Source: an uncultured Nitrososphaerota archaeon
GTDB lineage: Archaea > Thermoproteota > Nitrososphaeria > Conexivisphaerales > DTJL01
NCBI GenBank assembly: GCA_963842885.1
Contig: CAWJIE010000003.1
Span: 480,001-544,000 of the forward strand
Direction of reading: 5' to 3'
DNA length: 64,000 nt
Shown here: piece after piece, positions 34,471 through 55,838 of the stretch
How positions within the stretch are numbered: position 1 is the stretch's first letter
Layout of the letters: each line of letters starts with the position of its first letter
Notes under the pieces: generated by a model
What the model saw: the letters and a program-made list of their open reading frames with translations, nothing else
Told to the model about the DNA's origin: nothing
Database searches by the model: none
Translations under genes and position numbers: made by a program

Positions 34471-35112
34471 TTACTGTGAACCGCTCTGGCCGGCTTCGCC
34501 GCCCATGCTTGGCAGGTCGGGGAACTTGTCCTTCATGTTCTGCTCGGCGACGGCCGAGGCTTCAGCCAGGATGTGCTCCGCGTCCTCGTTCGCGGCCTCG
34601 AAGTTGAGTGTCAGGCCGCCAAGCTGTCCGGCGTCGACCAGGATGCTGCTGAGCACGTTGTTGATATCGCCTATCTCCTGCTCCGCCTCCGGCATCACGC
34701 CCGTCAGGCCTGACTTCACGCTCTTTATCACGGCCATGGCGGGAGCGAGGGTGACCACTATGTCGCCCAGCTCCGCAGCGGTGCTGAGCCTGAGGATGAT
34801 CTGTTCCAGCGCGATCCTCGCCGACGTGACCAGCTTCGACATCTTCCTGATCTCGGCGAGCTCGTTGGAGTAGATCGAAGCATGCTGCATGTCGTGCTTC
34901 TGGAGGGAGGAGACGACCTTGTTGAAGAGCGCTCCGTCCCTCTCCTTCAGCTTGTTGGTCGTGTTCTCGAGCTTCGATACTTGGACCTGAATGTTGCGGA
35001 CCGCGGCGTCGATGCGCGGCTTCAGGGGCCCCGCAGGGCTAAGCGATCCCCTGACCTTCTCCCCAAGCCCTGGGGTGTTGGAGGGGACCCATTTCTTACT
35101 AAATTCCGACAT
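34471..35112 (-). CDS. ESCRT-III / CdvB-like (Snf7) protein
   Basis: PLKPRI..A...IQ.Q..KL, ASIYSNELAEIRK, LEQI.LRL.T..ELGD, ILAEASAVAE..FPDLP. Confidence 0.88.
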   Translation of the reverse strand: MSEFSKKWVPSNTPGLGEKVRGSLSPAGPLKPRIDAAVRNIQVQVSKLENTTNKLKERDGALFNKVVSSLQKHDMQHASIYSNELAEIRKMSKLVTSARIALEQIILRLSTAAELGDIVVTLAPAMAVIKSVKSGLTGVMPEAEQEIGDINNVLSSILVDAGQLGGLTLNFEAANEDAEHILAEASAVAEQNMKDKFPDLPSMGGEAGQSGSQ

Positions 35113-35420
35113 AATCACTGCGCCTAGATGTTCGTATACCAACTGGCGGCTTATCTTTGGTTGTCACCAGTCGAGCCCTATACCCGGGTGACACCATCGC
35201 TGGTGGCGCATCATTTGGACGACGACGTCTTAGTAGACCACTCAGACGCATGACCGTCGCTGGAGGCTTCTCGATGACAACAATGTCAAGGCGAAGACCA
35301 GGCAGAAACCCCATGAATACGATTCTGAATGAATCGCCGCCTTGCGCATCGTCATGTGGGAAGGTGATGGCTCGCGCTGCTGCGGCCGCGCAACAAAAAC
35401 ACAGCTGTTGAAAGGGAGGG

Positions 35421-35720
35421 TTACTTCTGACGACTGAGCTTCCGGGACACTTCGGCCGACTTGTTCCATTTCATTACTGGGGCCACGTGCGTCCTTCCCA
35501 CAGACATCAGAGGAATCGCGAAGGAGAAGATTTGGGCGGGGTCCTTGGCTTCAACCACGAAGTAGATGTGATGGCCGGGGCCGTCCACGTAGCCCTCGAC
35601 TATCTTGACGTCGTTGGCGGTGGCCGCCTCGTTCAGGTCGTTGGTGAACTCTTTGTAGGGGCGGATCGTTCCGCTTGGACAGTGCTCTGCAGCGTGCGTA
35701 TGGTCGACTATGAATAGCAT
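35421..35720 (-). CDS. Hypothetical protein (DUF3303-like ferredoxin fold)
   Basis: MLFIVDHTH..EHCP...H.IYFVVEA. Confidence 0.6.
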   Translation of the reverse strand: MLFIVDHTHAAEHCPSGTIRPYKEFTNDLNEAATANDVKIVEGYVDGPGHHIYFVVEAKDPAQIFSFAIPLMSVGRTHVAPVMKWNKSAEVSRKLSRQK

Positions 35721-35807
35721 CGCCAGAAGAGGCCTTTCACGGGTCTTATTATCGCTTCGCAACATTCTGGTGGTTTCATGCGTCAATCAAACGCATGCGG
35801 AATGTAC

Positions 35808-35862
35808 AGCCTCGTCCCTGGACAGCTTGTCCGCCCTCTTCTGCTCCGCCTCGTAGAGCGTG
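35808..35862 (-). repeat. Module gene A fragment
   Basis: gcctcgtccctggacagcttgtccgccctcttctgctccgcctcgtagagcgtg, nearly identical to the 52905 copy. Confidence 0.92.
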
Positions 35863-35950
35863 TCGAGGAGTCTCAAGGCGCTAGAAGCCCACAGGGGGGG
35901 GCAGGTGGAACAATGTATTTTACGAAGCGCACAATGAGATAGGATCGAGG

Positions 35951-36166
35951 GTGACTCAAGTGGGCGTAGTCGGCGGACCCAAGGACCTCGCCAGGGGGAG
36001 GACGAAGTTCATCGAAGAGGCGCTAAAGGACCTGAGCCCAGGCTTGAAGGACGACGTGATGCAGGTCTTGAATGCCTGGGAGGGGGACCCATCGGAGGCG
36101 AAGCTCGCGAACCTCGTGGGGAGGGAGAAGGCCAGGCGTCTCGTCCAGTCATTTGGAGTGAAATAG
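35951..36166 (+). CDS. Hypothetical protein
   Basis: 71-aa ORF with AT-rich upstream box. Confidence 0.55.
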   Translation: MTQVGVVGGPKDLARGRTKFIEEALKDLSPGLKDDVMQVLNAWEGDPSEAKLANLVGREKARRLVQSFGVK

Positions 36167-36263
36167 GACGTCATTTCGCTTGCGGCTCGTCATCAGCTTC
36201 TGCCGGATGTGAGGCGAGGGTTGGGACATTGCAAGGGCTGGCCCTGAGCGCGACGCTGGCGCG

Positions 36264-36929
36264 TTGACGCGGTGGCAGGACTTGGAGCTAGAGGATTTCG
36301 TGGGGAAGTACGGGGAGCCCTTTTCGAAGTTGTTGGGCATCGACCTCCAGTCTAGGAAGAAGGAGGAGATGGTCAAATGGTTCCTCGCCTCCATCCTTTA
36401 CAGCAAGCCCATACGCGAAAGCGCAGCCACTCTGACATACAAGACTTTCGAGAGACATGGAGTTGCAGACGTCGAAGGGATCCTGTCTACGGGCTGGGGC
36501 GGTCTGGTGCGAATCCTGGACGAAGGAGGCTACACCAGATATGACTTCAGCACGGCCACCAGGCTGCTCGAAGTGTTCGGCCATCTGAAGAGTGAATACG
36601 CCTCGGACCTCTGGAACTTGTACGACCGCTCCTCCGATGGATCTGAACTTGAGAAGAGGCTGAAAGGACTCGGCAAGGGCATCGGCGATACCACGGTGTC
36701 GATCTTCCTGAGGGACATGAGACACATCTGGCCGAAGGCGTGCCCCAACCCGTCTCCGCTGGTGAGACTGGCGATGGCAGAGCTGGGCATCGATGACCTG
36801 GCAGAGATGGCAGAGCGAAGGGGCATGGACGCCGTGATGTTAGAGACCGCCCTGCTCAGGCTTGGCAAGGATTTCCTCAGAAAGGGTAGGAAGGTCGACG
36901 TGAAAGTGGTCAAGGCACTAAGGGTCTGA
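36264..36929 (+). CDS. HhH-GPD superfamily-like DNA-binding/repair protein
   Basis: KWFLASIL..KPI, LDEGGYTRYD, GKGIGDTTVSIFLRD. Confidence 0.7.
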   Translation: MTRWQDLELEDFVGKYGEPFSKLLGIDLQSRKKEEMVKWFLASILYSKPIRESAATLTYKTFERHGVADVEGILSTGWGGLVRILDEGGYTRYDFSTATRLLEVFGHLKSEYASDLWNLYDRSSDGSELEKRLKGLGKGIGDTTVSIFLRDMRHIWPKACPNPSPLVRLAMAELGIDDLAEMAERRGMDAVMLETALLRLGKDFLRKGRKVDVKVVKALRV

Positions 36930-36985
36930 TATGATTCGAGGCCGTGCGTTATCACCGGACGCCCAGGTTGGTCGCGCACGAGCGA

Positions 36986-37057
36986 CGAGCCTCGAAGGCG
37001 GTTTCCATCCTGAAGCTGCCGGGGAGCGAGCCGGTGATGCCGAATCCTACGTATTGA
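36986..37057 (+). repeat. Module gene B 3'-end fragment
   Basis: RASKAVSILKLPGSEPVMPNPTY* versus RASKAVPILKLLGSEPIVLNPMY*. Confidence 0.9.
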
Positions 37058-37111
37058 CTCCATATCCCGTAGGTTTAACTAAGGCTGTCGGCGTGATGAT
37101 CCTAGGTCAGG

Positions 37112-37696
37112 ATGTCTCGAACGCTCCTCATCGTGCCCAGGATTTATGCGAAGAGCGAATTCAGGGAGGCCGTATCATACGTTCCTGACGATTACGACGC
37201 CCAATCAGAAGAGTTCTGGACCTATGTGGCCGACAAGTTAAGGGCCTTCAGGGGCCGCATCAGATGGGTCTTCCGGGAGTCCCTGTCAGGAGATACCGAG
37301 GAGGCCTTGAAGGAGGCGAGCGGAGATGAGGGGCGGGGCCTCTCTCTCATAACAGGGCTCATCGAAGAGGGGGCGAAGCTGAAGCCGACCGAAGATCGCA
37401 TCCTCGTGGCTGAAACCGAGTCCTGGCTGAAGATGATTAGAGGTTCGTCGAATGATGCGCTGGTGGGGCTCTACGAGCAGAGCCTTGCGGAACGCAACCA
37501 CCACATCTCAGACCTCATAGACCAGTCCCTGGGCGAGGGTGAAGTCGGCCTGCTGCTCATCGACTCAAGGCGCAAGCTGGAACTCCCGAAGGATATCCGC
37601 ATCGTCAGGGTCCTCCCCTTTGATCCGGCGGACTACCTGAACGCGGAGATCGTCAAGGCCAGGCTGAGGTTGGGGAAGACCCAGGGCGGTGGCTGA
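37112..37696 (+). CDS. Hypothetical protein
   Basis: 194 aa, overlaps the next gene. Confidence 0.7.
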   Translation: MSRTLLIVPRIYAKSEFREAVSYVPDDYDAQSEEFWTYVADKLRAFRGRIRWVFRESLSGDTEEALKEASGDEGRGLSLITGLIEEGAKLKPTEDRILVAETESWLKMIRGSSNDALVGLYEQSLAERNHHISDLIDQSLGEGEVGLLLIDSRRKLELPKDIRIVRVLPFDPADYLNAEIVKARLRLGKTQGGG

Positions 37697-38831
37697 TGCA
37701 GTCATGTCTGAAGTCCCAGATTACTCTGCGCTCGTCAGGGAGGTGTTCGATACTTGCCTAGGCGTGAAGCCGAATGACAGAGTCTGGATAGATGGCTGGG
37801 ACCACACCCTCGACCTGGCGAGGGCCTTCGAATCTGAATGTGTGCGGAGAGGATGTCCCCGGCTGGTGACGGTGAGACACGAGGACACTTGGCTAAGGTC
37901 AATACTCGAAGGTCCGACGGAGCGTCTCAAGGCCGTCCCTCCGAAGGTGAAGGCGGCACTGGCGAAGGTCGATTTCTATATCTTCACCATGGGACCCAAG
38001 AAGCCGGTGCCGTGGGACTCGATCCCTAGGAAGAAGAGGGAAGCGGTCTCGGTCTGGCTGGACACGCGCTACGACAAGACATCGTACGCAAGGAATTGGG
38101 CGAAGATAGCCAAGGCTCACCGAGTCAAGATGCTCGCGGTGGAGGCGACGTTGGCGACGCCAGAGAGGGCGAAGAGCCAAGGGTTGAACTACGAAGAATG
38201 GCGTGATGTAATGCTACGGGCATGCATGGTGGACCACAAGGAGCTTGCTAGAAGGGGCAAGGCGCTGGCCAAGGTCCTGTCGGGGAAGGGAAAAGTCCGC
38301 CTAGTGACGCCTTCAGGCACACACCTGAGTTTGGCTCTCGACCGTAGGCCGGTCGAGATATCAGACGGTATCGCCACGGAGGAGATGGCCGAGGAGGGAA
38401 GGGTCACGTTTCTTCCCGCAGGGGCGATAGAGGTCTCGGTGGACGAAGGAAGCGCTCATGGCAGGATAGTCTACGATGCGCCCGTCCGTCTGGGTGATGA
38501 GATGATCGAGAACCTTGTTGTCGATCTGAAGGATGGGCGGATCTGCGAGTTCGAAGCAACTCGAGGGGCCAAGGCATTCGAAGAATACGTGGAGAAAGGG
38601 GGAAGGGACGCCGGGCGCTTCGCCTTCTTTGGATTCGGGCTGAACCCGAGCCTCCGGCATGGCTTCACACAAGATGACAAGGTCCTGGGCGGAGTGACGC
38701 TTGGCTTCGGCAGCAACGAATCGATGGGTGGGAAGAACGTCGCAGTCGACCAATGGTGGGCGTCCATCGCCAACGCGACTGTCAGGGTAGATGACACGAT
38801 GATAATGGACAGAGGAAAGCTGCTAGTCTGA
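37689..38831 (+). CDS. Aminopeptidase (M29-like), possibly inactive
   Basis: GT.L, FLPAGAI, FGFGLNP, DDKVLG; usual metal ligands appear substituted. Confidence 0.75.
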   Translation: MADAVMSEVPDYSALVREVFDTCLGVKPNDRVWIDGWDHTLDLARAFESECVRRGCPRLVTVRHEDTWLRSILEGPTERLKAVPPKVKAALAKVDFYIFTMGPKKPVPWDSIPRKKREAVSVWLDTRYDKTSYARNWAKIAKAHRVKMLAVEATLATPERAKSQGLNYEEWRDVMLRACMVDHKELARRGKALAKVLSGKGKVRLVTPSGTHLSLALDRRPVEISDGIATEEMAEEGRVTFLPAGAIEVSVDEGSAHGRIVYDAPVRLGDEMIENLVVDLKDGRICEFEATRGAKAFEEYVEKGGRDAGRFAFFGFGLNPSLRHGFTQDDKVLGGVTLGFGSNESMGGKNVAVDQWWASIANATVRVDDTMIMDRGKLLV

Positions 38832-39032
38832 GGGAACGAAAGCGGTGCTCTACCTTTGATTGCTGGCATACGGGCCTGCCTTCTTGTGAAGGCGTAGAAG
38901 GCAGAAGGTTGTGGCCCATTTTAAAGGCAGAACGGTGTCGGTGAAGACAGAGAAGGTATCTGCTCCTTTGAATGATGATTCGCTCGAAAGCTCAGACATA
39001 AATATCATTCTACAGTAGGCGCAAGTGCGTCC

Positions 39033-39548
39033 ATGGGCAGTCAGTCCAGCATCGAAATCAGGCAGGCGTCATTGAAGGACCTTCGACCCATCATGCGTCT
39101 TGCGAACAGATGCATCCTAGACCTGGCTGGAACCAAGCGTAGGAGGATCTTCCAGGTGATTTCGGACAGGATCAAACTTGACCTTACACTGTATCCCAGA
39201 ACTTGCCTGGTCGCCTCTAACGGCAGGGGGTTGGTGGGTTTCTCGCTGACAGAGGCCACTGGCTCATACGCTTCCATATTCCTGCTCGCCGTCAACCCAC
39301 AGTACAGAAGGAGAGGTGTGGGGTCGGCGCTGGTCTCTGACACGCTCAATCGACTAGCGGATGAGGGAGTCGAGTACGTCGAACTCATGACCTCCCTGGA
39401 GAACGAATCCGCTCAATCCTTCTGGATGAGGCAGGGCTTCACAGACGCTAAGATGAAGGTCTTCTCAAGGGTCTCAAGGCGACGCAATGCTCGGCGGCAG
39501 ACTCAAGCCTTCAAGCTAGAGGAAGACGCAAGAGCCAAGGGAAGATAA
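39033..39548 (+). CDS. GNAT N-acetyltransferase
   Basis: AVNPQYRRRGVGSAL, N..A..FW...GF. Confidence 0.88.
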   Translation: MGSQSSIEIRQASLKDLRPIMRLANRCILDLAGTKRRRIFQVISDRIKLDLTLYPRTCLVASNGRGLVGFSLTEATGSYASIFLLAVNPQYRRRGVGSALVSDTLNRLADEGVEYVELMTSLENESAQSFWMRQGFTDAKMKVFSRVSRRRNARRQTQAFKLEEDARAKGR

Positions 39549-39716
39549 CGTAACTCTGGGTGCTAGCTGCTGGGCCTCTGTCCTAGAGGTCGAAAACCAT
39601 TCAGCCCTCGGTCTTGCGTGCGCTCATCCGGAAGAGGATTCCATCTAGAACTGCTAGACTCCGTTTCATTGATGCTTGAGCGTGGTCTTTTCCGTAGGGC
39701 GCATGTCGACGTTAGG

Positions 39717-39752
39717 GCATTTGGCTGCCAGACTTCGCCGGTGTCCCTGTCC
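39717..39752 (-). repeat. Module gene A 3'-end fragment
   Basis: gcatttggctgccagacttcgccggtgtccctgtcc versus gcacttggctgctagacttcgaccgtgtccctatcc at 42492. Confidence 0.8.
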
Positions 39753-39758
39753 CCGCCG

Positions 39759-40364
39759 TCAGCTGGGCTTCGCCTTCCTCCATGCCATCCCCTTGCCTAG
39801 CGGGATGGTTCCTGGGCCAATGACGGAGTTGGTCACTATCGCGAAGCTGGTGTACGCCGCCAAGGAGGCGGTGATGATGCCGAGGTACCCCCCTATGGTC
39901 GTCAGGGAGGGGATGCCGTAGAGGTCGCCCGCCCCGAGGACGAAGAAGGTAATCCAGAGGAAGAGGAAGACGAGGCTCAGGGCGCGGTTTATAGTCGTGG
40001 ACGGTATCCACATATAGAGTGTGAATATCCCCCAGAGGATGAGGGTTGCACCCACTGCGCTTGAGATGGGCGTTATCACCTTCATGCTGGCGAGGAGCAC
40101 CAACAGCGCGTAGAAGAGCCAGAAGGCGCCATAGCTGCAGAAGGCCGTGAACCCGAAAGTGTTTCCCTTCCTCATTTCGAATACCCCAGTCAGCAGCTGG
40201 CATAGCCCTCCGTAGGCCAGCGCCAGCGGCAGCAAGACGTCCACCGTCGCGGCTGGAAGGAGCCCGGCGTTGGCGAAGCTGAGCAGGAAGGTGGTGAAAG
40301 CGAAGGCGGCTAACCCCAGAGAGGCGGGGTCGGCCGCGAGGGCCTTATCGGTGGCGACGCTCAT
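39759..40364 (-). CDS. satP: Acetate uptake transporter (GPR1/FUN34/YaaH)
   Basis: [34 protein letters not shown]. Confidence 0.92.
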
Positions 40365-42328
40365 GATGTTGCAACTCCGGCAAGCGCAGCCGCCAATTCT
40401 GCCTTCAACTCCTCGTAGCTCTGCTTTGCCTCCTCTATGCTCGTTCCGTCCTCCAAAGTCGTGATGTCTCCCAGCGCCCTCTCTTCGACGATGGCTCCCA
40501 GCAGGCGTCTCATGATCTTCCCGCTCCTGGTCTTGGGTAGCTTGCTGACGAAGTAGATATTCTCTGGTGCGGCTATGGACCCAAGGTTGTGTCGCACATG
40601 GTTTATCAGCTCCACTCTCAGTTGTGGCGACGCCTTGCTATCTGGCCTGAGGGTGACGAACGCCACGGGTACCTGCATCTTTATCGGGTCTGCCTTCCCT
40701 ATCACCGCCGACTCGGCCACGGCTGGATGAGAGATCAACACGTCCTCTAGCTCGGTTGTGCTGATCCTGTGGCCAGCGACCTTGAGCACCTCGTCGGCCC
40801 TCCCGAGGAACCAAAAGTAGCCATCTTCGTCTTTCATGGCATAGTCCGATGCCAGGTACATTCCAGGGATCTTCTTGAAGTATGCCTCCCTGAATCTCTT
40901 CGGGTTCTCCCAGATGGTCATGAGCTCTCCCGGCCATGGCCTCTTTATGACCATGAGGCCCTTCTCATTGGGACGAGCCGACCTACCATCTTCTGTGATG
41001 ACGTCGGCATCAACACCCGGCAGGGGGAGCGTGGCAGAGCCTGCTTTCAGTGGGATATGGGCGATCCCTGGCTGAGGGGAGACCATTATGCCTCCCGTTT
41101 CAGTCTGCCACCATGTGTCAACGATTGAACATCGGTGGTTCCCCACGTTCTTGTAATACCACTGCCAGGCCTCGGGATTGATGGGCTCGCCCACCGAACC
41201 GAGCAGACGAAGAGAGGACAGGTCGTGCTTCTTCACCCAGTCTTCCCCATACTTCATATGCATCCTGATGGAGGTCGGAGTCGTATACAGTATGGTGACG
41301 CCGTACCTTTCGATCATCTCCCACCATCTGTCAGGGGTAGGGTGATCGGGCGCGCCCTCGTACATGAACGAAGTGACACCTCTCAGAAGCGGGCCATAGA
41401 CCACGTAGGAATGGCCCGTAACCCAACCGATGTCCGCCGTGCACCAGAAGATGTCCTCGTCTTGTGCATCGAAGACCACCTTCTGTGTATAGTAGGACCA
41501 GAGCATGTAACCAGCCGTGCTGTGCACCACACCCTTGGGTGTGCCCGTCGTGCCAGACGTGTAGAGGATGTAACTGGGGTGGGTCCCCTCCAACCTTTCC
41601 GGCTCTACGGTGACTCCCGCGGGCTTCGTCAGCTCGTCATACCAGATGTCTCTGTCTTCGACCATGTTCGCTTCCCTGTTGGCCCTCCTGATGACGATTA
41701 CCTTTTCGATGGTGGAGGTTTCCTTCAGGGCCTCGTCGACCACCGACTTGAGTTCGACCAATTTCCCCCTCCTGTAGAAGCCGTCGGCCGTGATGACCGC
41801 CTTGCTCCCAGAGTCGTTGATGCGCTCGGCGACGGAATGGGCGCTGAAACCTGAGAAGATCACGGAGTGGATGGCTCCTATCCTGAGGCAGGCCAGCATG
41901 CTGATGGGGAGCTCGGGTATCATCGGCAGGTAGATGGTCACTCTGTCCTTCTTCCGGACGCCCAGCTGTTTGAGGACCCAGGCGAACCTGTTGACCTCCT
42001 TGTAGAGGTCGTAGTAGGTGAGGATGCGGCGGTCCCCGTTCTCCCCCTCCCAGTAGAAAGCGACCTTGTTCTTCCTCCAGCTCTTGACATGTCTGTCGAG
42101 GCAGTTGTACGATAGATTTGTCTCCCATTTGGGGAACCACCTTCCGTACGGGGGTTCGTCCATGCTTTCGAACACCGGCCCAGACTTCTGATACCAGAAG
42201 AGCTCGTCTGCTATATTGCGCCAAAAATTATCAGAATTCTCGAAGCTTTTGGAGTGAATCTCTCTTAGAATCTGGATGCTGGGGTGAAACCTTTCATCTG
42301 TTGGCAGCACATCCTTAACTTCTGCCAT
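40361..42328 (-). CDS. acs: Acetyl-CoA synthetase (AMP-forming)
   Basis: [33 protein letters not shown]. Confidence 0.95.
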
Positions 42329-42502
42329 TGTGGTTCACGGTCTAAACACAGTCAATTTAAACCTTCGCAATTATGGCCCCCTGCGCCGACATGGTCGTAT
42401 GGTTGCTAGTCTTCAAAGAAATGGCTTGATTGCTCCCCTCTGATGCTCTAATATTACGTATGAGGCATCAAGTCGTTTGCGGAACACTGGAGCACTTGGC
42501 TG

Positions 42503-42712
42503 CTAGACTTCGACCGTGTCCCTATCCTTGGGGTCCAGGGCCTTCTTGAGTTGCTTCGTGACCCAGTCGGAGTTCTCTTCGTTCTTCAGCTCCCTGGCTG
42601 CCTCGTCCCTGGACAGCTTGTCGGCTCTCCTCTGCTCGGCCGTGTAGAGCGTGTGCATGTCCTTGTAGGCCACCCTCTTCCCCTTCGTGTCCTCCTCGAC
42701 TACGGACGACAT
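42503..42712 (-). CDS. Module gene A, intact 69-aa protein of unknown function
   Basis: MSSVVEEDTKGKRVAYKDMHTLYTAEQRRADKLSRDEAARELKNEENSDWVTKQLKKALDPKDRDTVEV; copies differ largely at third codon positions. Confidence 0.75.
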   Translation of the reverse strand: MSSVVEEDTKGKRVAYKDMHTLYTAEQRRADKLSRDEAARELKNEENSDWVTKQLKKALDPKDRDTVEV

Positions 42713-42965
42713 ACCAGCAATCATGTGGGGTGCCTCCCTTAAAGGTGCACCTATCTTCTTTCTTGACAATTGGTCATCTAACATGTCCGACGTCTCAACA
42801 TGGAGGATTCCGATCTCTCTTTCATTGATAAGCCCAGCCTCGCTTGGGCGACCCCTGGTGACCCCCGGTCGTTTCATGCTCTGTCGTCGCTAATGCACCA
42901 TAGGTCAACTCCCCGCCAACGCCGGCAGTTATTAGAGAAGTGAGGCTCAGGGTTTGCGCCCAACG

Positions 42966-43490
42966 GTGATTAGCCTCGACCCTGCCTCCCCGGTGATAAG
43001 GAAGCTCCCGCTCGAAGTGCAGTCCGTGCTGGCGAAGCTGACCAGCATCGAGAGGGAGCTCGTCGAGGAGAGCAGGGAGCACAGCTGGGTGTGGATTGGG
43101 GACACAATTGTGGGGCGACTGGTGGGGAGGGACGTCTACACCATGGATTCCTTCGAGCGCGACTTCCTTCCCTCGGACCCGCCCGCCACGAAGGAGCCCC
43201 CTCTCAGGCCGGAGGGGGTGGCGGTGATACCGGGGTTCACCTCCGGGCCATGCCAGCCCCTCCTGATAGTGGTCATGGGGGCCTACGTCGACCACGAGAA
43301 GCTCATACTGCAGACGATCGAATACGTCTCCACCCGCTGCCGGGGGGCGACGAAGTACGTCGTCTTCTACGCCATCTCTTGGAACGGCGTGGCCTGGGCC
43401 GAGCACAGGGACTCGTTCAGGGCCTCGAAGGCCGTCCCCATCCTGAAGCTGCTGGGGAGCGAACCCATCGTCCTTAATCCGATGTATTAG
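42966..43490 (+). CDS. Module gene B, ~174-aa protein of unknown function
   Basis: Intact ORF divergent from gene A; five decayed fragments elsewhere in the window. Confidence 0.8.
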   Translation: MISLDPASPVIRKLPLEVQSVLAKLTSIERELVEESREHSWVWIGDTIVGRLVGRDVYTMDSFERDFLPSDPPATKEPPLRPEGVAVIPGFTSGPCQPLLIVVMGAYVDHEKLILQTIEYVSTRCRGATKYVVFYAISWNGVAWAEHRDSFRASKAVPILKLLGSEPIVLNPMY

Positions 43491-43491
43491 T

Positions 43492-43590
43492 GATCTGAAG
43501 CTAGGCGGTATGCATACCTATTACGGGTTCAAGTCTGAATGAGGGCGATACAAGGTATTCATAATGTGAACTTGTGACATCAAAGACATC
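43492..43590 (+). repeat. Motif E downstream of gene B
   Basis: ggcggtatgcatacctattacgggttcaagtc; copies at 62722 and 59203. Confidence 0.75.
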
Positions 43591-43697
43591 GAGGAATGTT
43601 GTCGAGGATTTCGATCATACGCATGCCTGTCTCACTCCCTGCCGCAACTCGCCCGGCCTTCCTAAGCCTGCCCGGAGGAAGGAAGAGATCTGACCGA

Positions 43698-44366
43698 TTA
43701 GCTGTATCCCTTCGAAACCAATACGTAGAGGACGTCCGACGCGTCCTCGGCATTGTCTGACACGTTGTCGACCATGTCGATGAAATCCCTGAGCTGCAGC
43801 ACGGAGAGGACCGAGACCTTCAGGGTGAATACCAGCTCGATGAGTGTGTCCTTGATGGAGTCCGCAGCCTCCTCATACTCTTCGACCTCCCGGGCGTACC
43901 GCAGGAGCTCCCCGTTCCTCTTGCCAAGGGTCTCGATGGCTTCGCGCAAGGAGGATACCGCCTTCACGGTCACGGCCAGGTGTTCCTTGACCTTGTCTCC
44001 TATGGGCGCCAGCTCGGAGGCTTCGAGGCGCCTCTGAGTGATTATCTTCCCCGCGGTCTTGGCGCTGTCGGCCACTCCGTCGACCTTCTCTGCCAGGTTC
44101 ATGAAGTCCGTGCCAAGGTTGGAGAAGAAGACGCCGTTGGAGAGCATCTCGACCAGGCGCCGATGGACGTGGTCGGCCTCCGTCTCGGCCTTGTCTATGT
44201 CCAGATAAGTGAAGTACGCGGTCTTGGGGTCGCCGGCCATGAGCTCGTCGACGACTCTTTCCAGAAGGCGCGTCGCCGACAGACTGAGCTCGACGTGGAC
44301 CATGAGCAGCTCGAGGATCTCCTTCTCTCCCGCGCTGAAAGGATGCAGCCACTTTAGGGGGTTCAC
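43698..44366 (-). CDS. DUF47/PhoU-like phosphate transport regulator
   Basis: E.EAD repeats, D.V.D.AEDA.D. Confidence 0.85.
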   Translation of the reverse strand: MNPLKWLHPFSAGEKEILELLMVHVELSLSATRLLERVVDELMAGDPKTAYFTYLDIDKAETEADHVHRRLVEMLSNGVFFSNLGTDFMNLAEKVDGVADSAKTAGKIITQRRLEASELAPIGDKVKEHLAVTVKAVSSLREAIETLGKRNGELLRYAREVEEYEEAADSIKDTLIELVFTLKVSVLSVLQLRDFIDMVDNVSDNAEDASDVLYVLVSKGYS

Positions 44367-44549
44367 GGCCGGGATCCTTTGGATTTGTGGTCGGAGACGG
44401 CCTATAAATGCCTAGGCCGGGGCACTACTACGGCGCCAGGCCGAAGGTCTCCCTGTCTCCTCAGACGCCGGCTCGACTGACAGGCTCTCGGAACATTTAA
44501 TTATCGACCGTCAGCCGAGTTTCTACACTAGGACCGAGATGCTAGTGCT

Positions 44550-46010
44550 TTGGCGTTCGGAAGGAAGAAGAAGGCGCGAGATTCAGAGGGAGGCCTCGGG
44601 GAGGACGCCTATGGTCTCAAGAGGGAGATCGGGGTCTGGGGCTCCTTCAGCATGGGCTACGCGGACGTCGGCGCTGACGTCTATGTGGCCCTGGGCATCC
44701 TCGCACTCTACGCCCACGCCTACGCGCCAATCGCCCTCCTGATCGCTTCAATCACCTACGTCACGACCGGCCTCACCTACGCCGAGCTGGCCACTCGCTA
44801 CCCGGTGGCGGGCGGGGGTCACTTCTACGCCTTGAAGGCCTTCGGTCCCCTGCACGGCTTCCTGGCCGGATGGGGCCTGATGCTCGACTACACCATAGAC
44901 ATAGCCCTCTTCGCCCTGGCGTCCTCGGGCTACCTCGGTGCCATAGTGCAGGTAGTCGCCCACACGGACATCCTCCTGCGGCCTCCCTGGTACAGCATCA
45001 TGGCGGTGGTGGTCATCGTGGCCCTCCTCCTGTTGAACATCGTCGGCATACGCTACTCGTCGAGGTTCAACGAATTGGTGGTGGCGCTCAACATCGTCAC
45101 CTTCCTGGTGATAATCCTGATCGGCTTCTACGTCGCGTATCTCGCCGGGGGCATCTCCTCCTGGACCTCCCAGTTGGAGCCGGGCTACATGGGGACGTCC
45201 AGCTTCGCCTATTCGCTCACCCTGGCCATGGCGTCCTTCATCGGCATCGAGTCCATCTCGCAGGCCGCCGAAGAGACGAAGACGCCGAACAAGGTGATCC
45301 CGAAGTCCACGAAGCTGTCGATAGTGGCGGTGCTCACCATAGCCCTGGCCCTCAGCTTCCTGTCCGTGAGCCTGCTGCCGTGGCAGACGACGGCCAACTC
45401 CTCCCAGAACCCGCTCTTCGTCATAACCGCCGCGTTCCCGCTGATAGGAGGAGGGCTGGCCGCCTGGGTCGCGATCAACGGGTTCTTGATGTGTGCGGTG
45501 TCCACCAACACTGGCGTCATAGGCGTGTCGCGCGTCACCTTCTCGATGGGCCGGCTGAACCTCACCCCGCGGGTATTCAGCAAGATACACAGGCGCTTCA
45601 GGACACCCTACGTCACCATAATACTGTTCTCGGGCGTCGCCGCCTCGATCCTGCTCTTCAACATATTCCTGCCTGGCGACGAGCTCCTCGACCTGGTGGC
45701 CTCCCTTTACAATTTCGGGGCCCTCATAGCCTACCTCTACGTGAACCTCTCGGCCGTCGCGCTGAGGTTCAAGGAGACGGAGAAGGCCGATTCATACAAG
45801 ACGCCCCTCAACTTCGGGGTGAACTACCATGGAAGGACGGTCAGGGTTTCGCTCGTCTCGATCATCGGCGTAGTCTCCTGCGCGGCCATGTGGGTCATCC
45901 TGGTCTGGACCCATCCGCTGGGGAGGATCGTCGGCTTCGCGTGGTTCGCGGTGGGCATCGTGATGTACTTCCTGTACAGGAGGGCCAGGGGCCTCCAGGT
46001 CCTGAGGTGA
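44550..46010 (+). CDS. APC family amino acid permease
   Basis: YAEL...PVAGG, GIESISQAAEE, HRRFRTPY, ~12 TMs. Confidence 0.9.
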   Translation: MAFGRKKKARDSEGGLGEDAYGLKREIGVWGSFSMGYADVGADVYVALGILALYAHAYAPIALLIASITYVTTGLTYAELATRYPVAGGGHFYALKAFGPLHGFLAGWGLMLDYTIDIALFALASSGYLGAIVQVVAHTDILLRPPWYSIMAVVVIVALLLLNIVGIRYSSRFNELVVALNIVTFLVIILIGFYVAYLAGGISSWTSQLEPGYMGTSSFAYSLTLAMASFIGIESISQAAEETKTPNKVIPKSTKLSIVAVLTIALALSFLSVSLLPWQTTANSSQNPLFVITAAFPLIGGGLAAWVAINGFLMCAVSTNTGVIGVSRVTFSMGRLNLTPRVFSKIHRRFRTPYVTIILFSGVAASILLFNIFLPGDELLDLVASLYNFGALIAYLYVNLSAVALRFKETEKADSYKTPLNFGVNYHGRTVRVSLVSIIGVVSCAAMWVILVWTHPLGRIVGFAWFAVGIVMYFLYRRARGLQVLR

Positions 46011-46120
46011 TGGAGATGGAGGCCACGGGATCGTTGAGCCACTCCTCCGCACTCGGCCCATCGACGGCACGAGACAAAAACATAAGAGCCTCTCCTTCGC
46101 ATTCACTAGACAGAGAGACC

Positions 46121-46993
46121 GTGGGGGAGAAGGCGATCGAGTGGGGTTGGAGCGACAGCCCCATCATATTGCCCCTGGCCTTCGACAGCAGAGAATGGAA
46201 CGCCGCCTACATCGCGGCCCACGTCGCCGAGTGTTGCGGTGCGACCCTGGTCGTCTTCCATGTGAGACCGAAGGGAGAGCGAATCGACACTGGCTTCAAG
46301 GCGGAATTCGATGATCTAATTTCGACCCTGAAGATAAAGCACGAATACGAGGAGAAGGAGGTCAAAGGCGAACCCCCATTCCAGACCATCGCCGAGCTCA
46401 TAGTCCGCGAAGTGGAGACTCGGTCGGCGCAGGCCGTCATAATGGCCGCCCACAAGGAGGGTTTCCTAGTGGGGAGGGTCTCGGACAGGGTGGCTCGTAT
46501 GAACAGGGCGAGGACGGTCCTCGTGGAGACCCCGCGACGGGAGACCAGGATGGCCGAGCACCCGAAGAAGGTCCTCGTCCTCGTCAAGGAGAAGACCAAG
46601 CCCAGCGACGCGTTCATCCTAGCGGCGGCGCTGACCTCCCTCGCGACGACGAGGGACGCGGAGCTCGTGGCGGCACAGGCCATCATCCTCCCTCCCACCG
46701 TGCCCCTCGAAGCGATCGAGTTCTCCGACACCTTGAAGGAAGCGGAGAGGGAGTTCGCCTTCGTGGTGGGCGACAGCATTCGCTCGCTGGGGAGGATCTT
46801 CACCCCGCGAGTCCTTGTGTCTCGTGAACTGGGGAGGGACGTAGGAGAATTCGCCGTATCGGAGAGGATAGACCTGATGATCCTCACCGGAAGGGGAGCG
46901 CGTGACTTCACAAGCCTATTCGGCAGAGACACCACCGACATCGTAAAGAACTCGCCCTGCGTCGTGCTCGTGGTCTTCCCGCAACGCGCCTAG
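46121..46993 (+). CDS. Tandem universal stress protein domains
   Basis: G.VSDRVAR and IVKNSPCVVLVV; start 46121 or 46010. Confidence 0.8.
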   Translation: MGEKAIEWGWSDSPIILPLAFDSREWNAAYIAAHVAECCGATLVVFHVRPKGERIDTGFKAEFDDLISTLKIKHEYEEKEVKGEPPFQTIAELIVREVETRSAQAVIMAAHKEGFLVGRVSDRVARMNRARTVLVETPRRETRMAEHPKKVLVLVKEKTKPSDAFILAAALTSLATTRDAELVAAQAIILPPTVPLEAIEFSDTLKEAEREFAFVVGDSIRSLGRIFTPRVLVSRELGRDVGEFAVSERIDLMILTGRGARDFTSLFGRDTTDIVKNSPCVVLVVFPQRA

Positions 46994-47113
46994 GCTTCGA
47001 GGATGTTCGGGTCCTTCGGGTCCAGGACCTTCTTGAGCTGCTTCGTGACCCAGGCGGAGTTCTCTTGGTTCCTCAGCTCCTTGGCGGCCTCATCCCTAGA
47101 AAGCCAGTCGGCC
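46990..47113 (-). repeat. Module gene A 3' fragment sharing CTAG with the USP stop
   Basis: DWLSRDEAAKELRNQENSAWVTKQLKKVLDPKDPNILEA*. Confidence 0.92.
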
Positions 47114-47169
47114 GCGGGTCCCCTCCACAAAGTTAAGATAGGAATCCGAAACCATCTTTCTCTGACGGC

Positions 47170-48795
47170 TTGCCCGAGATAGAGGTAAAGGGACTCTCTT
47201 TCACGTATGAGAACCGTTCGGAGCCAGCCTTGGCCGACGTCAACCTGAGCATCGGTAGTGAGGAGTTCGTCCTCGTCGCCGGTGCTAGCGGGTCGGGAAA
47301 GTCCACCTTGATAAAATGCATCAACGGTCTCATACCGCACCGGTACGTCGGCAGCTACTCCGGAGAGGTGGCGATCAGGGGAAAGCCTGTGGCCTCTTCG
47401 CTGTTCCTAGAGCTTTCGCTTACCGTAGGGACCGTGTTGCAGGAGACAGACAAACAGCTAGTGGGCTCAAAGGTGGAGGATGACATAGCCTTCGGCCCCT
47501 GCAACCTCGCCCTCACCATTCCGGAGGTCGAGGAGCGGGTCACAGCTAGCGTGCAGTCCACGGGGATGGAAGGCCTCCGGGGGCGCTCCATCTTCGCCCT
47601 TTCGGGAGGGCAGAAACAGAGGCTGGCCATAGCCGACACTTTGGCCATGCGGCCCGACATCATTCTCTTCGACGAGCCCCTCGCCAATTTGGACTCCAAC
47701 GGCGTCAGGCTGATGCAGGAGGTCTTCAGGGAGTTCCACCGGCAGCACAAGACAATCATCGTCTCCGAGCACAGGACGGAGGAGGTCCTTCGCGCTGGGC
47801 CCACCAGGGTCGTCGTAATAGACAGGGGTCACATAATGGCCGACAGCAGAGACCCGGCCGTCCTCATTCAGTTCGCCGACGTGCTGAAGGTCCCCGCAAG
47901 CTACGCCCTCAAGAACGAAGAGGTGAGGGAGAACCTTCTGCGTGCGACCAGTGCGCCCGCCATCGCGGCGCCCCAGGCCTCCCAGGAGCTCATCAGGGTC
48001 GAAGACCTGAGCTACGAATACCGAGGAGGGGTTAGGGCCCTCGACCACGTCAGCTTCTCCATCCGTGACGGAGAAAGGCTGGCCATCCTTGGAAACAACG
48101 GAGCGGGCAAGTCCACCCTTTCGCTCAACATGGTCGGGATACTCAAGCCCACCTCCGGCAGGGTTCTGATTAACGGCAAGGACACTCGTCAGATGGAGGT
48201 TTCTGAGATCGCAAAGTGGATGGGCCTCGTCTTCCAGGATCCCTTCTCCATGCTGTTCGCCAAGACGGTCTATGACGAGCTCGCCTTCGGGCCTAAGAAC
48301 ATCGGCGCGAAAGAAGAGGAGATCAGGAGCGTCGTCCCCGAGGTGGCGAAGCAGTGCCTGATAGACCACCTCCTGGACAGGTCACCCTTCGCCTCCAGCT
48401 ATGGCGAAAAGAGGAGGATAGGGGTGGGCTCCATCCTTACCATGAAGCCTCGTTGCGTCATCCTGGATGAGCCGACGGCGGGTCAGGACTACCGGAGCTA
48501 TTCGCATTTCATGGATTTCATAGGCTCGCTGAAGGGGAGGGTGAGCGCTTCTGTGGTCATCACTCACGACCCCGACCTGGCGATAGAATACACAGACAGG
48601 GCCATCGTCCTGGGGGACGGGCGCGTGGTGGCCGATGGTCCCACACGGGAGGTGTTGGCAGACCCCTCCATCCTGTCGACCTGCGCCATCCGGGAGACCT
48701 CGCTCATCGAGCTCTCCAGGGAGGTCACCGGGGGGAGGAGCGTGCTTGGGCTCCGACAGCTGGCGGAGGCCCTGGCGAGGCGGGGAGAGGGTTAA
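47170..48795 (+). CDS. ECF transporter fused double ATPase
   Basis: Two ABC domains, GASGSGKS and GNNGAGKS, DEPTAGQD. Confidence 0.92.
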   Translation: MPEIEVKGLSFTYENRSEPALADVNLSIGSEEFVLVAGASGSGKSTLIKCINGLIPHRYVGSYSGEVAIRGKPVASSLFLELSLTVGTVLQETDKQLVGSKVEDDIAFGPCNLALTIPEVEERVTASVQSTGMEGLRGRSIFALSGGQKQRLAIADTLAMRPDIILFDEPLANLDSNGVRLMQEVFREFHRQHKTIIVSEHRTEEVLRAGPTRVVVIDRGHIMADSRDPAVLIQFADVLKVPASYALKNEEVRENLLRATSAPAIAAPQASQELIRVEDLSYEYRGGVRALDHVSFSIRDGERLAILGNNGAGKSTLSLNMVGILKPTSGRVLINGKDTRQMEVSEIAKWMGLVFQDPFSMLFAKTVYDELAFGPKNIGAKEEEIRSVVPEVAKQCLIDHLLDRSPFASSYGEKRRIGVGSILTMKPRCVILDEPTAGQDYRSYSHFMDFIGSLKGRVSASVVITHDPDLAIEYTDRAIVLGDGRVVADGPTREVLADPSILSTCAIRETSLIELSREVTGGRSVLGLRQLAEALARRGEG

Positions 48796-48831
48796 TTAAC
48801 GCAAAGCGCCCATGCATAACAGGGGACTGTT

Positions 48832-49422
48832 TTGGGAGCACCGACGACGGGAACTGCTACACCTCAGCCTAGGGAGTCGCTCTTTTCGGCCAAGCAGATC
48901 GTAGCCATGGCACTGGGCACCGCACTTTACGCTGGCCTTACGATACCCTTCAACGTCCTTCAGATACCGGGCGTGGGCTTGATAGCTATCAGGCCCACCA
49001 TCGCCATCCCCATCATCTTCGGAATCGTCTTCGGCCCCGTCACTGGCTTCGTGGTAGGCTTGCTCGGGAACTCGATCGCGGACGTACTCTCCTTTGGTGG
49101 CTTCTTCTGGAACTGGGACCTCGGGAACGGGATAATCGGGCTCGTCGCAGGCGTCGGCTTCTACATCATCGCCCGCCGACAGTGGGCGAAGGGCAGGGGC
49201 CTCACCATGGCACTCGTGCTGTCCGTAGTCGCTTCGCTGGTGGGCATAGGGTTCGCCGCGGTTACGGACTACATATTCTCGATCGGCCTCAATACGTGGG
49301 GGGCGGCGCTGTCTGAGTTCTACACAGCCGGTGGAACGGACGCGGTGAACGGCGCCATCCTGGTTCCGATACTCCTCTACGCGTACGCCACGGCCACAGC
49401 CGGAAGGGCGAGAAGAGTGTAA
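48832..49422 (+). CDS. ECF transporter S component
   Basis: IVA.ALGTALYA, FGP..GF.VG..GN, WNWD.GNG. Confidence 0.85.
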   Translation: MGAPTTGTATPQPRESLFSAKQIVAMALGTALYAGLTIPFNVLQIPGVGLIAIRPTIAIPIIFGIVFGPVTGFVVGLLGNSIADVLSFGGFFWNWDLGNGIIGLVAGVGFYIIARRQWAKGRGLTMALVLSVVASLVGIGFAAVTDYIFSIGLNTWGAALSEFYTAGGTDAVNGAILVPILLYAYATATAGRARRV

Positions 49423-49443
49423 TGGCGCATCATCTGATGCACA

Positions 49444-50252
49444 ATGACAACGATCAGGAACTTCCCAGGCAACACGTTCCTACATAGGCTGGACCCACGA
49501 AACAAGTTTTTTCTGATCCTCCTCTACATATTCATAGAGGTGACCTTCACCGACATCAGGGTCCTGGTCCTCCCCTTCGTGGCCTCCATCATCCTCTACC
49601 TGTCGGCCAAGATACCTTTCAAGGAGGTCAAGTCCTCCTGGAAGTTCCTGCTCACGATCATCGTAGTCATATCGACGGTGAACGCGCTATTCACCCTCCT
49701 CGGCGCCAGCGTCGCGCACCCCCATGTCATCGCCAGGTTCTGGGTCCTCACGCTCACGGAGGAAGGGGCCTTCTTCGCCCTGGCGGCCCTGATGAGGTTC
49801 ATGTCCGTGGCCATCATAGCTATGACGGTCATCTTCACCACCGAGCCGACGCTCTACGCCCCAGCCCTTGCCAAGCTGGGAGTCCCCTACAAGGGAGCCT
49901 TCGTGGTGGACCTGGCGCTCCGCTACCTCCCCACCTACGCGAATGAGCTCGATACGACCCTCAACGCCCAGATGGCCAGGGGCTACAAAGCCAGGGCCAA
50001 GGGGGGTTTGAGGGCGCGCATCATCAACACCATTCCGCTGCTGGTCCCCGTCGCCGTAGGCGCCATGCTCTCCATCTACGACGTGGCCGACGCCATGGAG
50101 CTTCGGTCGTTCGGGGCCATGAAGCACAGGACATGGTACAGGGAGGTCAAGGCTAAGGGATCGATTACGCCGCCTTCGCGGTGATCGCGATACTTCTGGT
50201 GGTGGCGATCTACCTCCGCACCCGGATCACTACCTATTGGATACCCAGCTAG
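49444..50252 (+). CDS. ECF transporter T component, frameshift near 50155
   Basis: LHRLDPR, AQMARG, AMELRSF; final TM (DYAAFAVIAILLVVAIYLR) lies in a shifted frame ending 50252. Confidence 0.85.
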
Positions 50253-50272
50253 GTCGTACCTTCGTCCGGCTG

Positions 50273-50323
50273 GCGTCCCCGTCCTTGGGGTCCGAGCCGG
50301 TGATACTGAACCCTATGTACTGA
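50273..50323. repeat. Collapsed module scar: gene A 3' end joined to gene B 3' end
   Basis: gtccccgtccttggggtcc (A) continues as LGSEPVILNPMY* (B). Confidence 0.85.
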
Positions 50324-50330
50324 TGGCCTG

Positions 50331-50690
50331 TCAGCCGTACATGTCTTTCTGCTTGATGTCCTCTCTCATCTTCGTGACCGTTTCCTGAGCGGCCTCCTCC
50401 TTCATGCTCTCGACTATGAAGTTGGCAACCTCATCGGGGTACCTGTAGAAGAGCTTCTCCACGCCCGACCATAGGACGCCCGAAGATTCCGAGTCGACCC
50501 CTCTGCCGCCGGTGACCAGCGTCCTGAGCATGTCGCTCATCCCCTGGGCGATGATGAGGCCGAAGTACCCGTCGTCGTCCAGCTCCTCGCCCATGAGCTG
50601 GTCCGCGATGGCCCTGAACGCCTTCACGAGTTTTGCGTCCCTCTCCGGGAGCTTGAATTCGAACCGCGTTCCTTCTGATTCCTGGCCCAT
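50331..50690 (-). CDS. Hypothetical protein
   Basis: 119 aa from ATG 50690; coding-like composition. Confidence 0.65.
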   Translation of the reverse strand: MGQESEGTRFEFKLPERDAKLVKAFRAIADQLMGEELDDDGYFGLIIAQGMSDMLRTLVTGGRGVDSESSGVLWSGVEKLFYRYPDEVANFIVESMKEEAAQETVTKMREDIKQKDMYG

Positions 50691-50812
50691 ATCACACTCA
50701 TAATCTAAGTGACCCTCCGTTCCATTTCTATGTTTCGGGAGTACCCCATGTTCCAAGAGCACGGTCTTAATCAATGCCGCTCGTCATGGACCGTTCGGGG
50801 CCTGCCTGCAAG

Positions 50813-51021
50813 CTACACTTCGACGGTGTCCCTGTCCTTGGGGTCCAGGGCCCTCTTCTAATCGGCTTGGTAGACTGTGTGCATGTCCTTGTAGGCCACC
50901 CTCTTCCCCTTGGTGTCCTCCACCAACGTCGCTCGGAGGGTCGTCTTCGGTCATTGCCACCCGGGGAGGAGGCGCACTCTCCTCCTCCCCAACACTCAAT
51001 GCCACCGTTAAGGCCCAGGAT
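50813..51021. repeat. Internally deleted gene A copy (50813-50925) followed by family C copy 2 (50938-51021)
   Basis: A 3' end joins at ggccctcttc directly to the KRVAYKDMHT region. Confidence 0.88.
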
Positions 51022-51066
51022 ACCCTGCACTCGTCCTTCAAGTCCCCCCGGGAAAAGTGGGGGAAA

Positions 51067-51765
51067 TCATGACTGCCGCGGCGGATGAGGCCTTCTGAGG
51101 ATCTCCAGTACCTCTTCGTCCGTCAGGTCATACCAGTTCCTGTAGGCATCGGCGACCGCGAAGGACGGCCCGCTCCTTGTGTTCAAGCACACTATCTCGT
51201 CCACCTCAGACGCAAGCAACTCAATGGCGGCCGAGGAGCCAGTCGGCGCAGCGATCACCAGCCGTTTGGGCATTTCCTTCCTCACGGACCTCGCCGCCGC
51301 CAGCATCGTGTAGCCCGAGGCCAGACCATCGTCGACTATGATGACCACCTTGCCTTTGAGTCGGGGGAGGGGTCGACCTCCCCTGAACTTTCTGAGCCTT
51401 TCTTGGATTGTATCCCTCGTCTTTGAAATGCATTCCTTCATCGTCCTCTCCGAAAGCCCCAGGCGTTCGACCAGAGGTAGGTTGAGGATGATGTCGCCGT
51501 CGAACGACATGGCGCCGAACCCCGATTCGGTAGTCCACGGCAACTGAATCTTCCTGACCACGATCACCTCCATCGGGATGTCGAGCTCCGTCGCCACGAC
51601 ATCTCCCACGGGAGCACCTCCAGCCGCGGCGGCCAGGACCAGAGCGTCGCCGCGCGCCGCGTATTGCCGCAGTTTCTTCGACAGAAGCACGCCGCCGTCC
51701 GTCCTGTCTTCGAACACGAACGTCCGTTCCCTGAGAGATATCTCTTCAGTTACCTTGGCGGTCAA
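51067..51765 (-). CDS. Phosphoribosyltransferase family protein
   Basis: FEDR.DGG, VIIVDDGLASGYTM. Confidence 0.9.
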   Translation of the reverse strand: MTAKVTEEISLRERTFVFEDRTDGGVLLSKKLRQYAARGDALVLAAAAGGAPVGDVVATELDIPMEVIVVRKIQLPWTTESGFGAMSFDGDIILNLPLVERLGLSERTMKECISKTRDTIQERLRKFRGGRPLPRLKGKVVIIVDDGLASGYTMLAAARSVRKEMPKRLVIAAPTGSSAAIELLASEVDEIVCLNTRSGPSFAVADAYRNWYDLTDEEVLEILRRPHPPRQS

Positions 51766-55832: not shown

Positions 55833-55838
55833 CGCCAG

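Follow-up and report, generated by a model that had tools for sequence, protein, structure and literature searches.

Remnants of a divergent orphan gene pair recur in one orientation across a reshuffled genomic island of an uncultured Conexivisphaerales archaeon

Our analysis addressed a stretch of 64,000 nucleotides (nt) from an uncultured Nitrososphaerota archaeon of the order Conexivisphaerales (GenBank assembly GCA_963842885.1), hereafter called the window, and within it a unit of about 1 kb that consists of two small, divergently oriented genes, A and B, and reaches from the stop codon of A to the stop codon of B. The source genome (G000) comprises 2.03 Mb in 11 contigs and is 87% complete; the window corresponds to G000:C3:480001-544000, and coordinates given without a contig name are positions in the window. 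Both genes are intact and under selection, and incomplete copies of the unit occur in a single orientation throughout the surrounding island, with their ends kept and their centres lost. The island is permuted relative to a related species (genome G002), and co-occurring strains carry alternative junctions. We tentatively favour the reading that the ends of the unit are recurrent recombination sequences of an accretion island. The features of the unit are as follows, with lengths of proteins and open reading frames (ORFs) given in amino acids (aa).

42503-42712 including the stop codon, minus strand: gene A, an intact ORF of 69 aa plus stop with its start (MSSVV) at 42712
42966-43490 including the stop codon, plus strand: gene B, an intact ORF of 174 aa plus stop with a GTG start
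42713-42965, no strand assigned: divergent control region with the palindrome and putative promoters, based on an alignment of 12 copies
42763-42776, no strand assigned: palindrome TGACCAATTGTCAA in the A/B control region
42518-42536, plus strand: core motif GTCCCTATCCTTGGGGTCC, inside the 3' end of A
43434-43460, plus strand: core motif with an 8-nt spacer, GTCCCCATCCTGAAGCTGCTGGGGAGC, inside the 3' end of B
43504-43552, plus strand: element of about 45 nt with the core TACCTATTACGGGTTCAAGTC, just past the stop codon of B, which occurs alone elsewhere in the island
43504-43552, 62715-62753, C3:545119-545157 and C3:459507-459527, plus strand: the four copies of the 45-nt element in G000, all on C3

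An intact gene pair and its co-oriented remnants

The original prediction had placed two intact, divergent genes at this locus, and both ORFs were confirmed. They lie head-to-head around a control region of about 250 bp. An alternative ATG for A at 42724 would give 73 aa; the GTG start of B at 42966 agrees with the starts of its homologues, and a TTG at 42954 would extend the protein to 178 aa. A longer frame of 124 aa (42503-42877) was rejected as gene A, because it passes through A's own promoter and because distant copies keep, upstream of MSSVV, only the palindrome and a TATA-like box. Specifically, in three more distant species the conserved sequence upstream of A is limited to the palindrome (TGACC-N-ATTGTCAA) and a TATA-like CCTTTAAGG box about 30 nt 5' of the A start. 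A TATA-like TTTAA is located about 27-31 nt 5' of the A start and the sequence TTATTAG about 30 nt 5' of the B start. The palindrome matches twice in the window, both times within copies of the unit, against an expectation of 0.03. Judged from these sequence features, the region probably gives rise to two divergent leaderless transcripts, with a putative operator beside the promoter of A.

Ratios of non-synonymous to synonymous substitution (dN/dS, Nei-Gojobori) were 0.03-0.45 in all 28 pairs of eight A copies, with dS of up to 2.8, and 0.23-0.51 in all six pairs of four B copies, and A and B are therefore considered selected proteins. This comparison across copies had been proposed as a check in the original prediction, and for both genes the values are below 1, in agreement with its claim that the copies are diverged, selected alleles and not the product of one recent duplication. 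The C-terminal variants of A on which that claim had drawn (KDRDTVEV, KDKDTIEV and KDPNILEA) were verified among the copies. A second intact A is located beyond the window, at C3:567456-567662.

Searches for remnants with tblastn, blastn and nhmmer identified 13 other loci of the unit within the window, listed below. Each is truncated or broken, so that, as had been predicted, no copy in the window other than this pair has A and B both intact. All 13 were found on the plus strand.

2348-2399, plus strand: A remnant, from homology searches
6165-6465, plus strand: B remnant covering residues of about 76-161, from homology searches
21104-21283, plus strand: internal piece of B fused directly to a piece of the 3' part of A, with a deletion across the B-to-A junction
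25257-25417, plus strand: A 3' remnant abutting the stop codon of a HerA-like gene
31513-31577, plus strand: A remnant, from homology searches
35742-35879, plus strand: A remnant, from homology searches
36986-37057, plus strand: B 3' end remnant, ending at a stop codon
46987-47113, plus strand: A 3' end remnant, beginning at the stop codon
50275-50328, plus strand: B 3' end remnant, with an A-type core motif before it
50807-50938, plus strand: A remnant with an internal deletion
52896-53463, plus strand: A copy without its last codons, with part of the control region including the palindrome
59861-60029, plus strand: A 3' end remnant
60722-60864, plus strand: A 3' end remnant

With the unit as query, nhmmer returned 22 matches in the whole genome, 19 of them in about 82 kb (C3:486-568 kb), and the E-values of the remnants against the whole genome (4e-3 to 4e-77) exclude chance similarity. 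Besides the intact unit, 17 loci lie in C3:482-568 kb (one of them added by blastn), including the 13 of the window, and all 17 have the orientation of the intact unit, for which the chance is 0.5^17. The same uniformity is found in G002 on every contig with at least two matches, namely C77 (4/4), C65 (4/4), C24 (3/3), C70 (3/3) and C1 (2/2). This strict co-orientation, together with the reshuffled cassette island described below, had been missed by the original prediction.

To the left, homology to the unit breaks off where A has its stop codon, and to the right where B has its own. Of 22 A-end copies, 11 begin at the stop to within 1 nt, and the B 3' stubs terminate at theirs. Across seven left and five right ends we detected no shared flank, target duplication, inverted termini, terminal hairpins or common target sequence. 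Coverage of the unit by remnants in G000 is U-shaped, with about nine copies of the A 3' end, about one of the centre (the B-side control region and the 5' half of B) and about four of the B 3' end. The simple reading of this profile is that copies which retain a promoter together with a truncated gene may be selected against and silent 3' stubs last; alternatively, the ends themselves may matter.

The kept ends and lost centre recall the non-autonomous derivatives of transposons, and an orientation that is uniform along about 85 kb, in a window whose cumulative GC skew shows no reversal of sign, might suggest that the unit is a small transposon which, like IS200/IS605, moves as single-stranded DNA, so that replication sets the orientation of insertion, and that the stubs are dead copies. 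We regard this as very unlikely, since neither A nor B carries a signature of HUH/Y1, TnpB or any other transposase, the ends show no terminal hairpins, inverted repeats, target duplication or common target sequence, and nearly all copies are confined to one region of the genome.

The outer ends of the two genes do have a sequence in common. A direct motif, GTCCCYRTCCT(N0/8)TGGGG, is shared by the 3' ends of A and B and matches seven times in the 2.03-Mb genome, always on the plus strand and always in A-end or B-end copies; at 50275-50293 the spacer-less A-type motif is followed directly by the end of B (to 50328). The 45-nt element past the stop codon of B contains a T-loop-like GGGTTCAAGTC. 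Five further copies of this element were detected in the fetched loci (four from G002, one from G003), and the four in G002 are co-oriented with the A/B remnants there. An RNA fold of the element was unsupported (-3.2 kcal/mol, no compensatory pair).

On the reading that we tentatively favour, the unit, and chiefly the 3' ends of A and B, would be a recombination or attachment sequence of the island. Segments of DNA would enter, leave and re-enter as circles via Campbell-type recombination at the A/B end sequences, a process that would preserve orientation and duplicate part of the unit at each event. Surplus copies would then lose the promoter-bearing centre first and end up as silent 3' stubs.

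A more conservative explanation would be that A and B are ordinary host paralogues without dedicated mobility, whose local copies decay and, as dispersed direct repeats, passively promote homologous recombination. Intact A is present in all five genomes of the genus and is strongly constrained, the borders of the remnants are scattered (see below) and scans of the island found no mobility gene, all of which would be expected in that case. What makes this explanation improbable is, first, that A copies within one genome differ by a dS of 0.11-0.24 and have unrelated flanks right up to the stop codons, which indicates separate arrivals and not local copying together with the flanks. Second, duplication and drift would not be expected to leave 17 loci in strict co-orientation. 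Third, many remnants are found only in G000 and G002, the two genomes that have an intact B, and few in G003 and G004, although with five related genomes this is a weak signal.

Reshuffling of the surrounding island

The island extends over about 90-100 kb (about C3:476-576 kb). DNA of the window matches G002 as blocks of 0.2-3.7 kb, mostly with 83-95% identity, which are dispersed on at least 20 G002 contigs and change their order within contigs. On G002:C70, for example, the blocks follow each other as 32.2-33.0, 18.6-21.1, 35.4-35.8 and 54.1-57.4 kb of the window, C3:555.5-556.1 kb, and then 25.3-29.0 and 53.3-54.1 kb of the window, all in a single orientation. Of the 27 blocks on five G002 loci, 23 are oriented as in G000 when the remnants are taken as the reference. 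By contrast, G002 is collinear with the flank at C3:460-475.5 kb and with three 20-kb controls from other parts of the genome. Terminal overlaps, which would indicate circularity, were absent from the six small G002 contigs checked. We infer that recombination at the A/B end sequences causes the permutation, carried out perhaps by B, alone or with A, or else by general homologous recombination.

Rearrangement is also visible among strains. Contigs assembled from four public peat and freshwater metagenome runs (assembled contigs, not reads) were compared with positions 35001-55000, and they confirm several of the G000 junctions and also show alternatives. In three runs, contigs match from 43504 on, 14 nt past the stop codon of B, and differ to the left of it. 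A join of 50253 to 50813 skips the B stub as well as a 147-aa ORF and meets the stop codon of A, a join of 42683 to 47116 places a longer A remnant before a transporter operon of the energy-coupling factor (ECF) type, and a join of 44379 to 39758 indicates a permuted or circular order of the 4.6-kb segment that contains the unit. Since joints among A copies are ambiguous, they were counted only with unique sequence on at least one side. We further examined 45 homology break points between G000 and G002, all inside G002 contigs. A remnant was located within 100 bp of 14 of them in G000 and of 18 in either genome, compared to 8% for random positions.

Several results weigh against recombination at the unit's ends as the source of this pattern. 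There is no A/B remnant within 100 bp in either genome at 27 of the 45 break points, and since break points fall in intergenic gaps, of which about 13 of about 65 in the window hold a remnant (a rough count from the ORF map), the enrichment is modest. The inner borders of the A remnants range from 42547 to 42799 in the unit, 7 of 22 forming a loose cluster at 42596-42609, and such a spread is more easily reconciled with deletion or homologous recombination than with a single fixed crossover. G002 is assembled in 140 contigs, so that the location of a block on another contig is by itself not a rearrangement. Identities in the control regions are mostly 71-86%, with a few blocks at 89-93%, and the flank at C3:460-475.5 kb reaches 89-90%; because of the latter value, the idea that island blocks are more similar between the species than the core was dropped. 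The last 66 nt of an aldo-keto reductase block also recur as a 3' stub (61860-61925). Finally, no recombinase was identified: PF00589 is absent from C3:476-576 kb, its four matches in the genome being located at C5:9966-11788 (two), C3:398951-399493 and C4:323742, and a Pfam scan of 119 ORFs (65 + 52 + 2) of C3:480-576 kb revealed no recombinase, transposase or Cas1 domain. About half of the ORFs in the island scans could be given no family.

The 27 break points without a remnant would be readily explained if the pair were a passenger, that is, a selfish or accessory pair of addiction- or defence-like nature that was acquired repeatedly and left decayed copies, all in one direction because every cassette inserts in a fixed direction, while the plasticity of the island has another cause. 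Other repeats and gene stubs are likewise found at junctions, and the island has defence-like or accessory genes that G002 lacks (STAND NTPase, SNF2 helicase with NOV_C, HNH, HerA-like), as would suit such a passenger. Type II toxin-antitoxin pairs are known to stabilise cassette arrays, and their genes are co-transcribed. The A/B pair is similar to them in its two small adjacent genes, its palindromic operator-like site, its many decayed copies and its location in a variable island. Unlike those pairs, A and B are divergent and do not form an operon, each is found without the other, and neither matches a PADLOC model or a toxin or antitoxin family. Moreover, no other repeat family approaches the A/B remnants in number, and the core motif common to both outer ends would be left unexplained. 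We consequently think it rather unlikely that the pair is merely carried along.

An all-against-all repeat search of 65 intergenic gaps of the island detected only three other small repeat groups besides A/B. The 66-nt end of the aldo-keto reductase gene is found at 61860-61925, before the block of a 206-aa ORF, and at C3:562778-562843; on G002:C77 the aldo-keto reductase and 206-aa ORF blocks are adjacent in the opposite order, which resembles a circular permutation. A segment of 319 nt including a 70-aa ORF (30454-30772) is 99.4% identical to C3:8227-8545, and short repeats akin to it are located at 14174-14209, 29669-29703 and 30412-30437.

The island carries metabolic, transport, DNA-repair and defence-like genes. 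They are encoded on both strands, and co-orientation is restricted to the A/B remnants and the 45-nt element. The window encodes TBP, TFB, a family-B DNA polymerase and XPB with a DUF790 partner, which mark the organism as an archaeon. The family-B DNA polymerase gene (3753-6143) has an A stub (2348-2399) on one side and a B stub (6165-6465) on the other, and it has no paralogue at E < 1e-10 in the 87%-complete genome. Also between an A stub and a B stub lies the ECF-type transporter operon (47170-50184; ATPase, S component and CbiQ-like T component), for which G002 has no counterpart beyond matches of less than 100 nt. The TFB-TBP pair (32244-34021) has a counterpart at C3:164206-165819, with identities of 92% for TFB and 99% for TBP, and more TFB and TBP paralogues are encoded on C3, C5 and C8. 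A HerA-like ATPase with a 600-aa partner of no family (25344-28945) and XPB with its DUF790 partner (54240-57401) each form one block shared by G000 and G002:C70 with 92-93% identity. Most of C3:560-576 kb, with defence-like genes, is absent from G002. The defence-like group at C3:564500-576458, to the right of the second intact A, includes a STAND-type NTPase, a QueC-like protein and a 1118-aa SNF2 helicase with NOV_C, all of them absent from G002. Rfam families were not detected in the window.

Two proteins outside known families

Neither protein could be assigned to a family, as the original prediction had also stated. Searches of A and B against Pfam, NCBIfam, PHROGs and PADLOC gave nothing below E = 0.06; against PDB sequences the B profile found no match and the A profile a single one at chance level (E = 1.9).

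A is charged and is predicted to form one long helix. AlphaFold2, run with 12 sequences, yielded a single long helix (residues 4-59) with a predicted local distance difference test score (pLDDT) of 67, and a ribbon-helix-helix fold, which had been considered, was therefore unsupported. A full HMMER pass against 1.84 billion representatives gave 27 matches, mostly short and highly similar; the two long proteins among them, with 27-28% identity, appear chance-like. The neighbours of A in the ESM Atlas are unnamed small proteins (0.95-0.96). In a metagenome ORF of 106 aa (P0024), the last 38 residues of A are fused in frame behind an unrelated N-terminal part, which shows that the reading frame of a neighbouring gene can end in an A stub.

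In B, an alignment of eight sequences shows a helical, variable N-terminal third and a C-terminal half of alternating strands and helices that bears the invariant residues, including HRD and a terminal LNPxY. The original prediction had raised, as speculation, a nuclease-like fold for B and a role of A as its partner or as a DNA-binding protein. The AlphaFold2 model of B from these eight sequences has a mean pLDDT of 44.7, too low to judge the fold. The nearest named clusters in the ESM Atlas are PD-(D/E)XK families (0.80-0.82), rated by the tool as a lead only; otherwise the nearest clusters are unnamed (up to 0.86). When the alignment was checked for the PD-(D/E)XK motif, E111 was invariant and the adjacent K was not kept. 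Relatives of B are few: among 5.8 billion clusters, eight were found with the single sequence and 14 with the profile, and no longer or fused forms occurred there, which is weak evidence. B is present in 4 of 61 related genomes, all from one genus of Conexivisphaerales. A search of a genome collection returned one locus, in a metagenome-assembled genome of Conexivisphaerales, and a search of a metagenome collection returned four loci, one of them 99.98% identical to a known G002 contig and two more that are either indistinguishable from a G002 contig by nhmmer or similar to one; these four loci added no new gene context. Judged by titles and abstracts, a literature search on mobile genetic elements of Conexivisphaerales brought up nothing on this feature, the A and B proteins themselves not having been searched in print. 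In contigs from two of the metagenome runs (X1 and X2), in which the unit has the same coverage depth as its surroundings, single-base indels occur at 42817, 42950 and 42989, and the one at 42989, inside B, would shift the frame of B in that strain.

The original prediction had treated A and B as one module, and in this respect it was too strict, because the two genes need not occur together. An intact A that lacks B is found in three genomes (G001, G003 and G004) and at C3:567456, and G002:C42 encodes an intact B of 170 aa (49% identical) without A. In G004 we found no B, and in G003 a trace of 32 residues only. A survey of gene neighbourhoods, which the original prediction had suggested, showed that the A-B arrangement recurs within G000 and G002: besides the intact unit it is found on G002:C77 (A truncated, B intact), on G002:C65 (A, control region and first codons of B) and at 52896-53463 of the window. 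In the other genomes the neighbours of A differ, namely an HNH gene in G001, an Hsp20-like gene in G003, and a hydrolase and a ParB-like gene in G004; the A at C3:567456 is next to a 379-aa ORF at C3:567863.

Relation to known systems and significance

The pattern is most like that of arrays which grow as elements integrate one after another at a single gene end: partial copies of two gene ends, all facing one way and restricted to one region, lie between blocks that are exchanged and permuted, mostly without inversion. Among 68 integrated elements of Thaumarchaeota, 14 have the 3'-distal part of a protein gene as their integration site, and tandem arrays are found (Krupovic et al. 2019, PMC6563490); the integrase or casposase of these elements can be recognised, and their att sites or target duplications are defined. 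Compared with these arrays from the same archaeal class, the island shares co-oriented partial copies of gene 3' ends that begin at the stop codon, accretion at one place and accessory cargo. The A and B stubs are direct partial copies of a target 3' end, as in such an array. In contrast, the island is devoid of an integrase or casposase gene of this kind (the Pfam scans of C3:480-576 kb revealed no element-borne integrase), its repeats vary in length and two neighbouring genes supply them.

Similar considerations apply to the tycheposon islands of Prochlorococcus, which contain partial target copies and fragmented integrases from successive integrations, with a tRNA or tmRNA gene as target and a tyrosine recombinase as enzyme (Hackl et al., 10.1101/2020.12.28.424599). 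Successive integration at one site, scattered partial copies of the target and rearrangement confined to the island are points of likeness, with fragmented mobility genes present in the tycheposon islands; here, in contrast, we detected no tRNA gene in 116 kb covering the island and no recombinase match within it. Integrons, including archaeal ones, combine IntI with folded attC sites and cassette genes that point in one direction (Ghaly et al., 10.1101/2022.02.06.479319). Like a chromosomal integron, the island appears as a long series of exchangeable cassettes that change in order but not in direction, with a repeat between cassettes. Unlike an integron, it has no PF00589 protein, its only frequent repeat is the remnant of two protein genes, and its cargo lies on both strands in blocks of up to 3.7 kb with several genes.

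Four departures from known arrays, namely the lack of a known recombinase, the varying length of the stubs, the origin of the repeats from two adjacent orphan genes and the large amount of shuffling without a visible stub, are the reason why we hold the recombination-sequence reading only tentatively. We would class the locus as an accretion island whose repeats are gene ends and which is built on two proteins that belong to no known family. A bolder idea makes B, possibly under the guidance or regulation of A, the first member of a new family of small DNA recombinases or nucleases acting on the 19-27-nt core of the A and B 3' ends. Together they would constitute an integron-like archaeal platform for cassette capture in which gene ends replace attC and which operates without a tyrosine recombinase. 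We consider this idea unlikely to be correct.

The non-ammonia-oxidising relatives of Thaumarchaeota from peat are known almost solely from metagenomes, and gene exchange among them is little understood. In the present case the reshuffling of a large island can be seen both from species to species and among strains that occur together. No recognised mobility gene was found in it, and its one recurrent feature is the remnant of an orphan gene pair. For experiments, the locus offers defined sequences in the core motif and the 45-nt element, as well as B, which can be tested alone or together with A. If it is true that the pair or its ends drive the exchange, the system would be a new one for gene capture and B would represent a new family of enzymes. 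If the ends act as passive homology, the island would still be a clear natural case of conserved small genes that serve as portable anchors for the exchange of cassettes.

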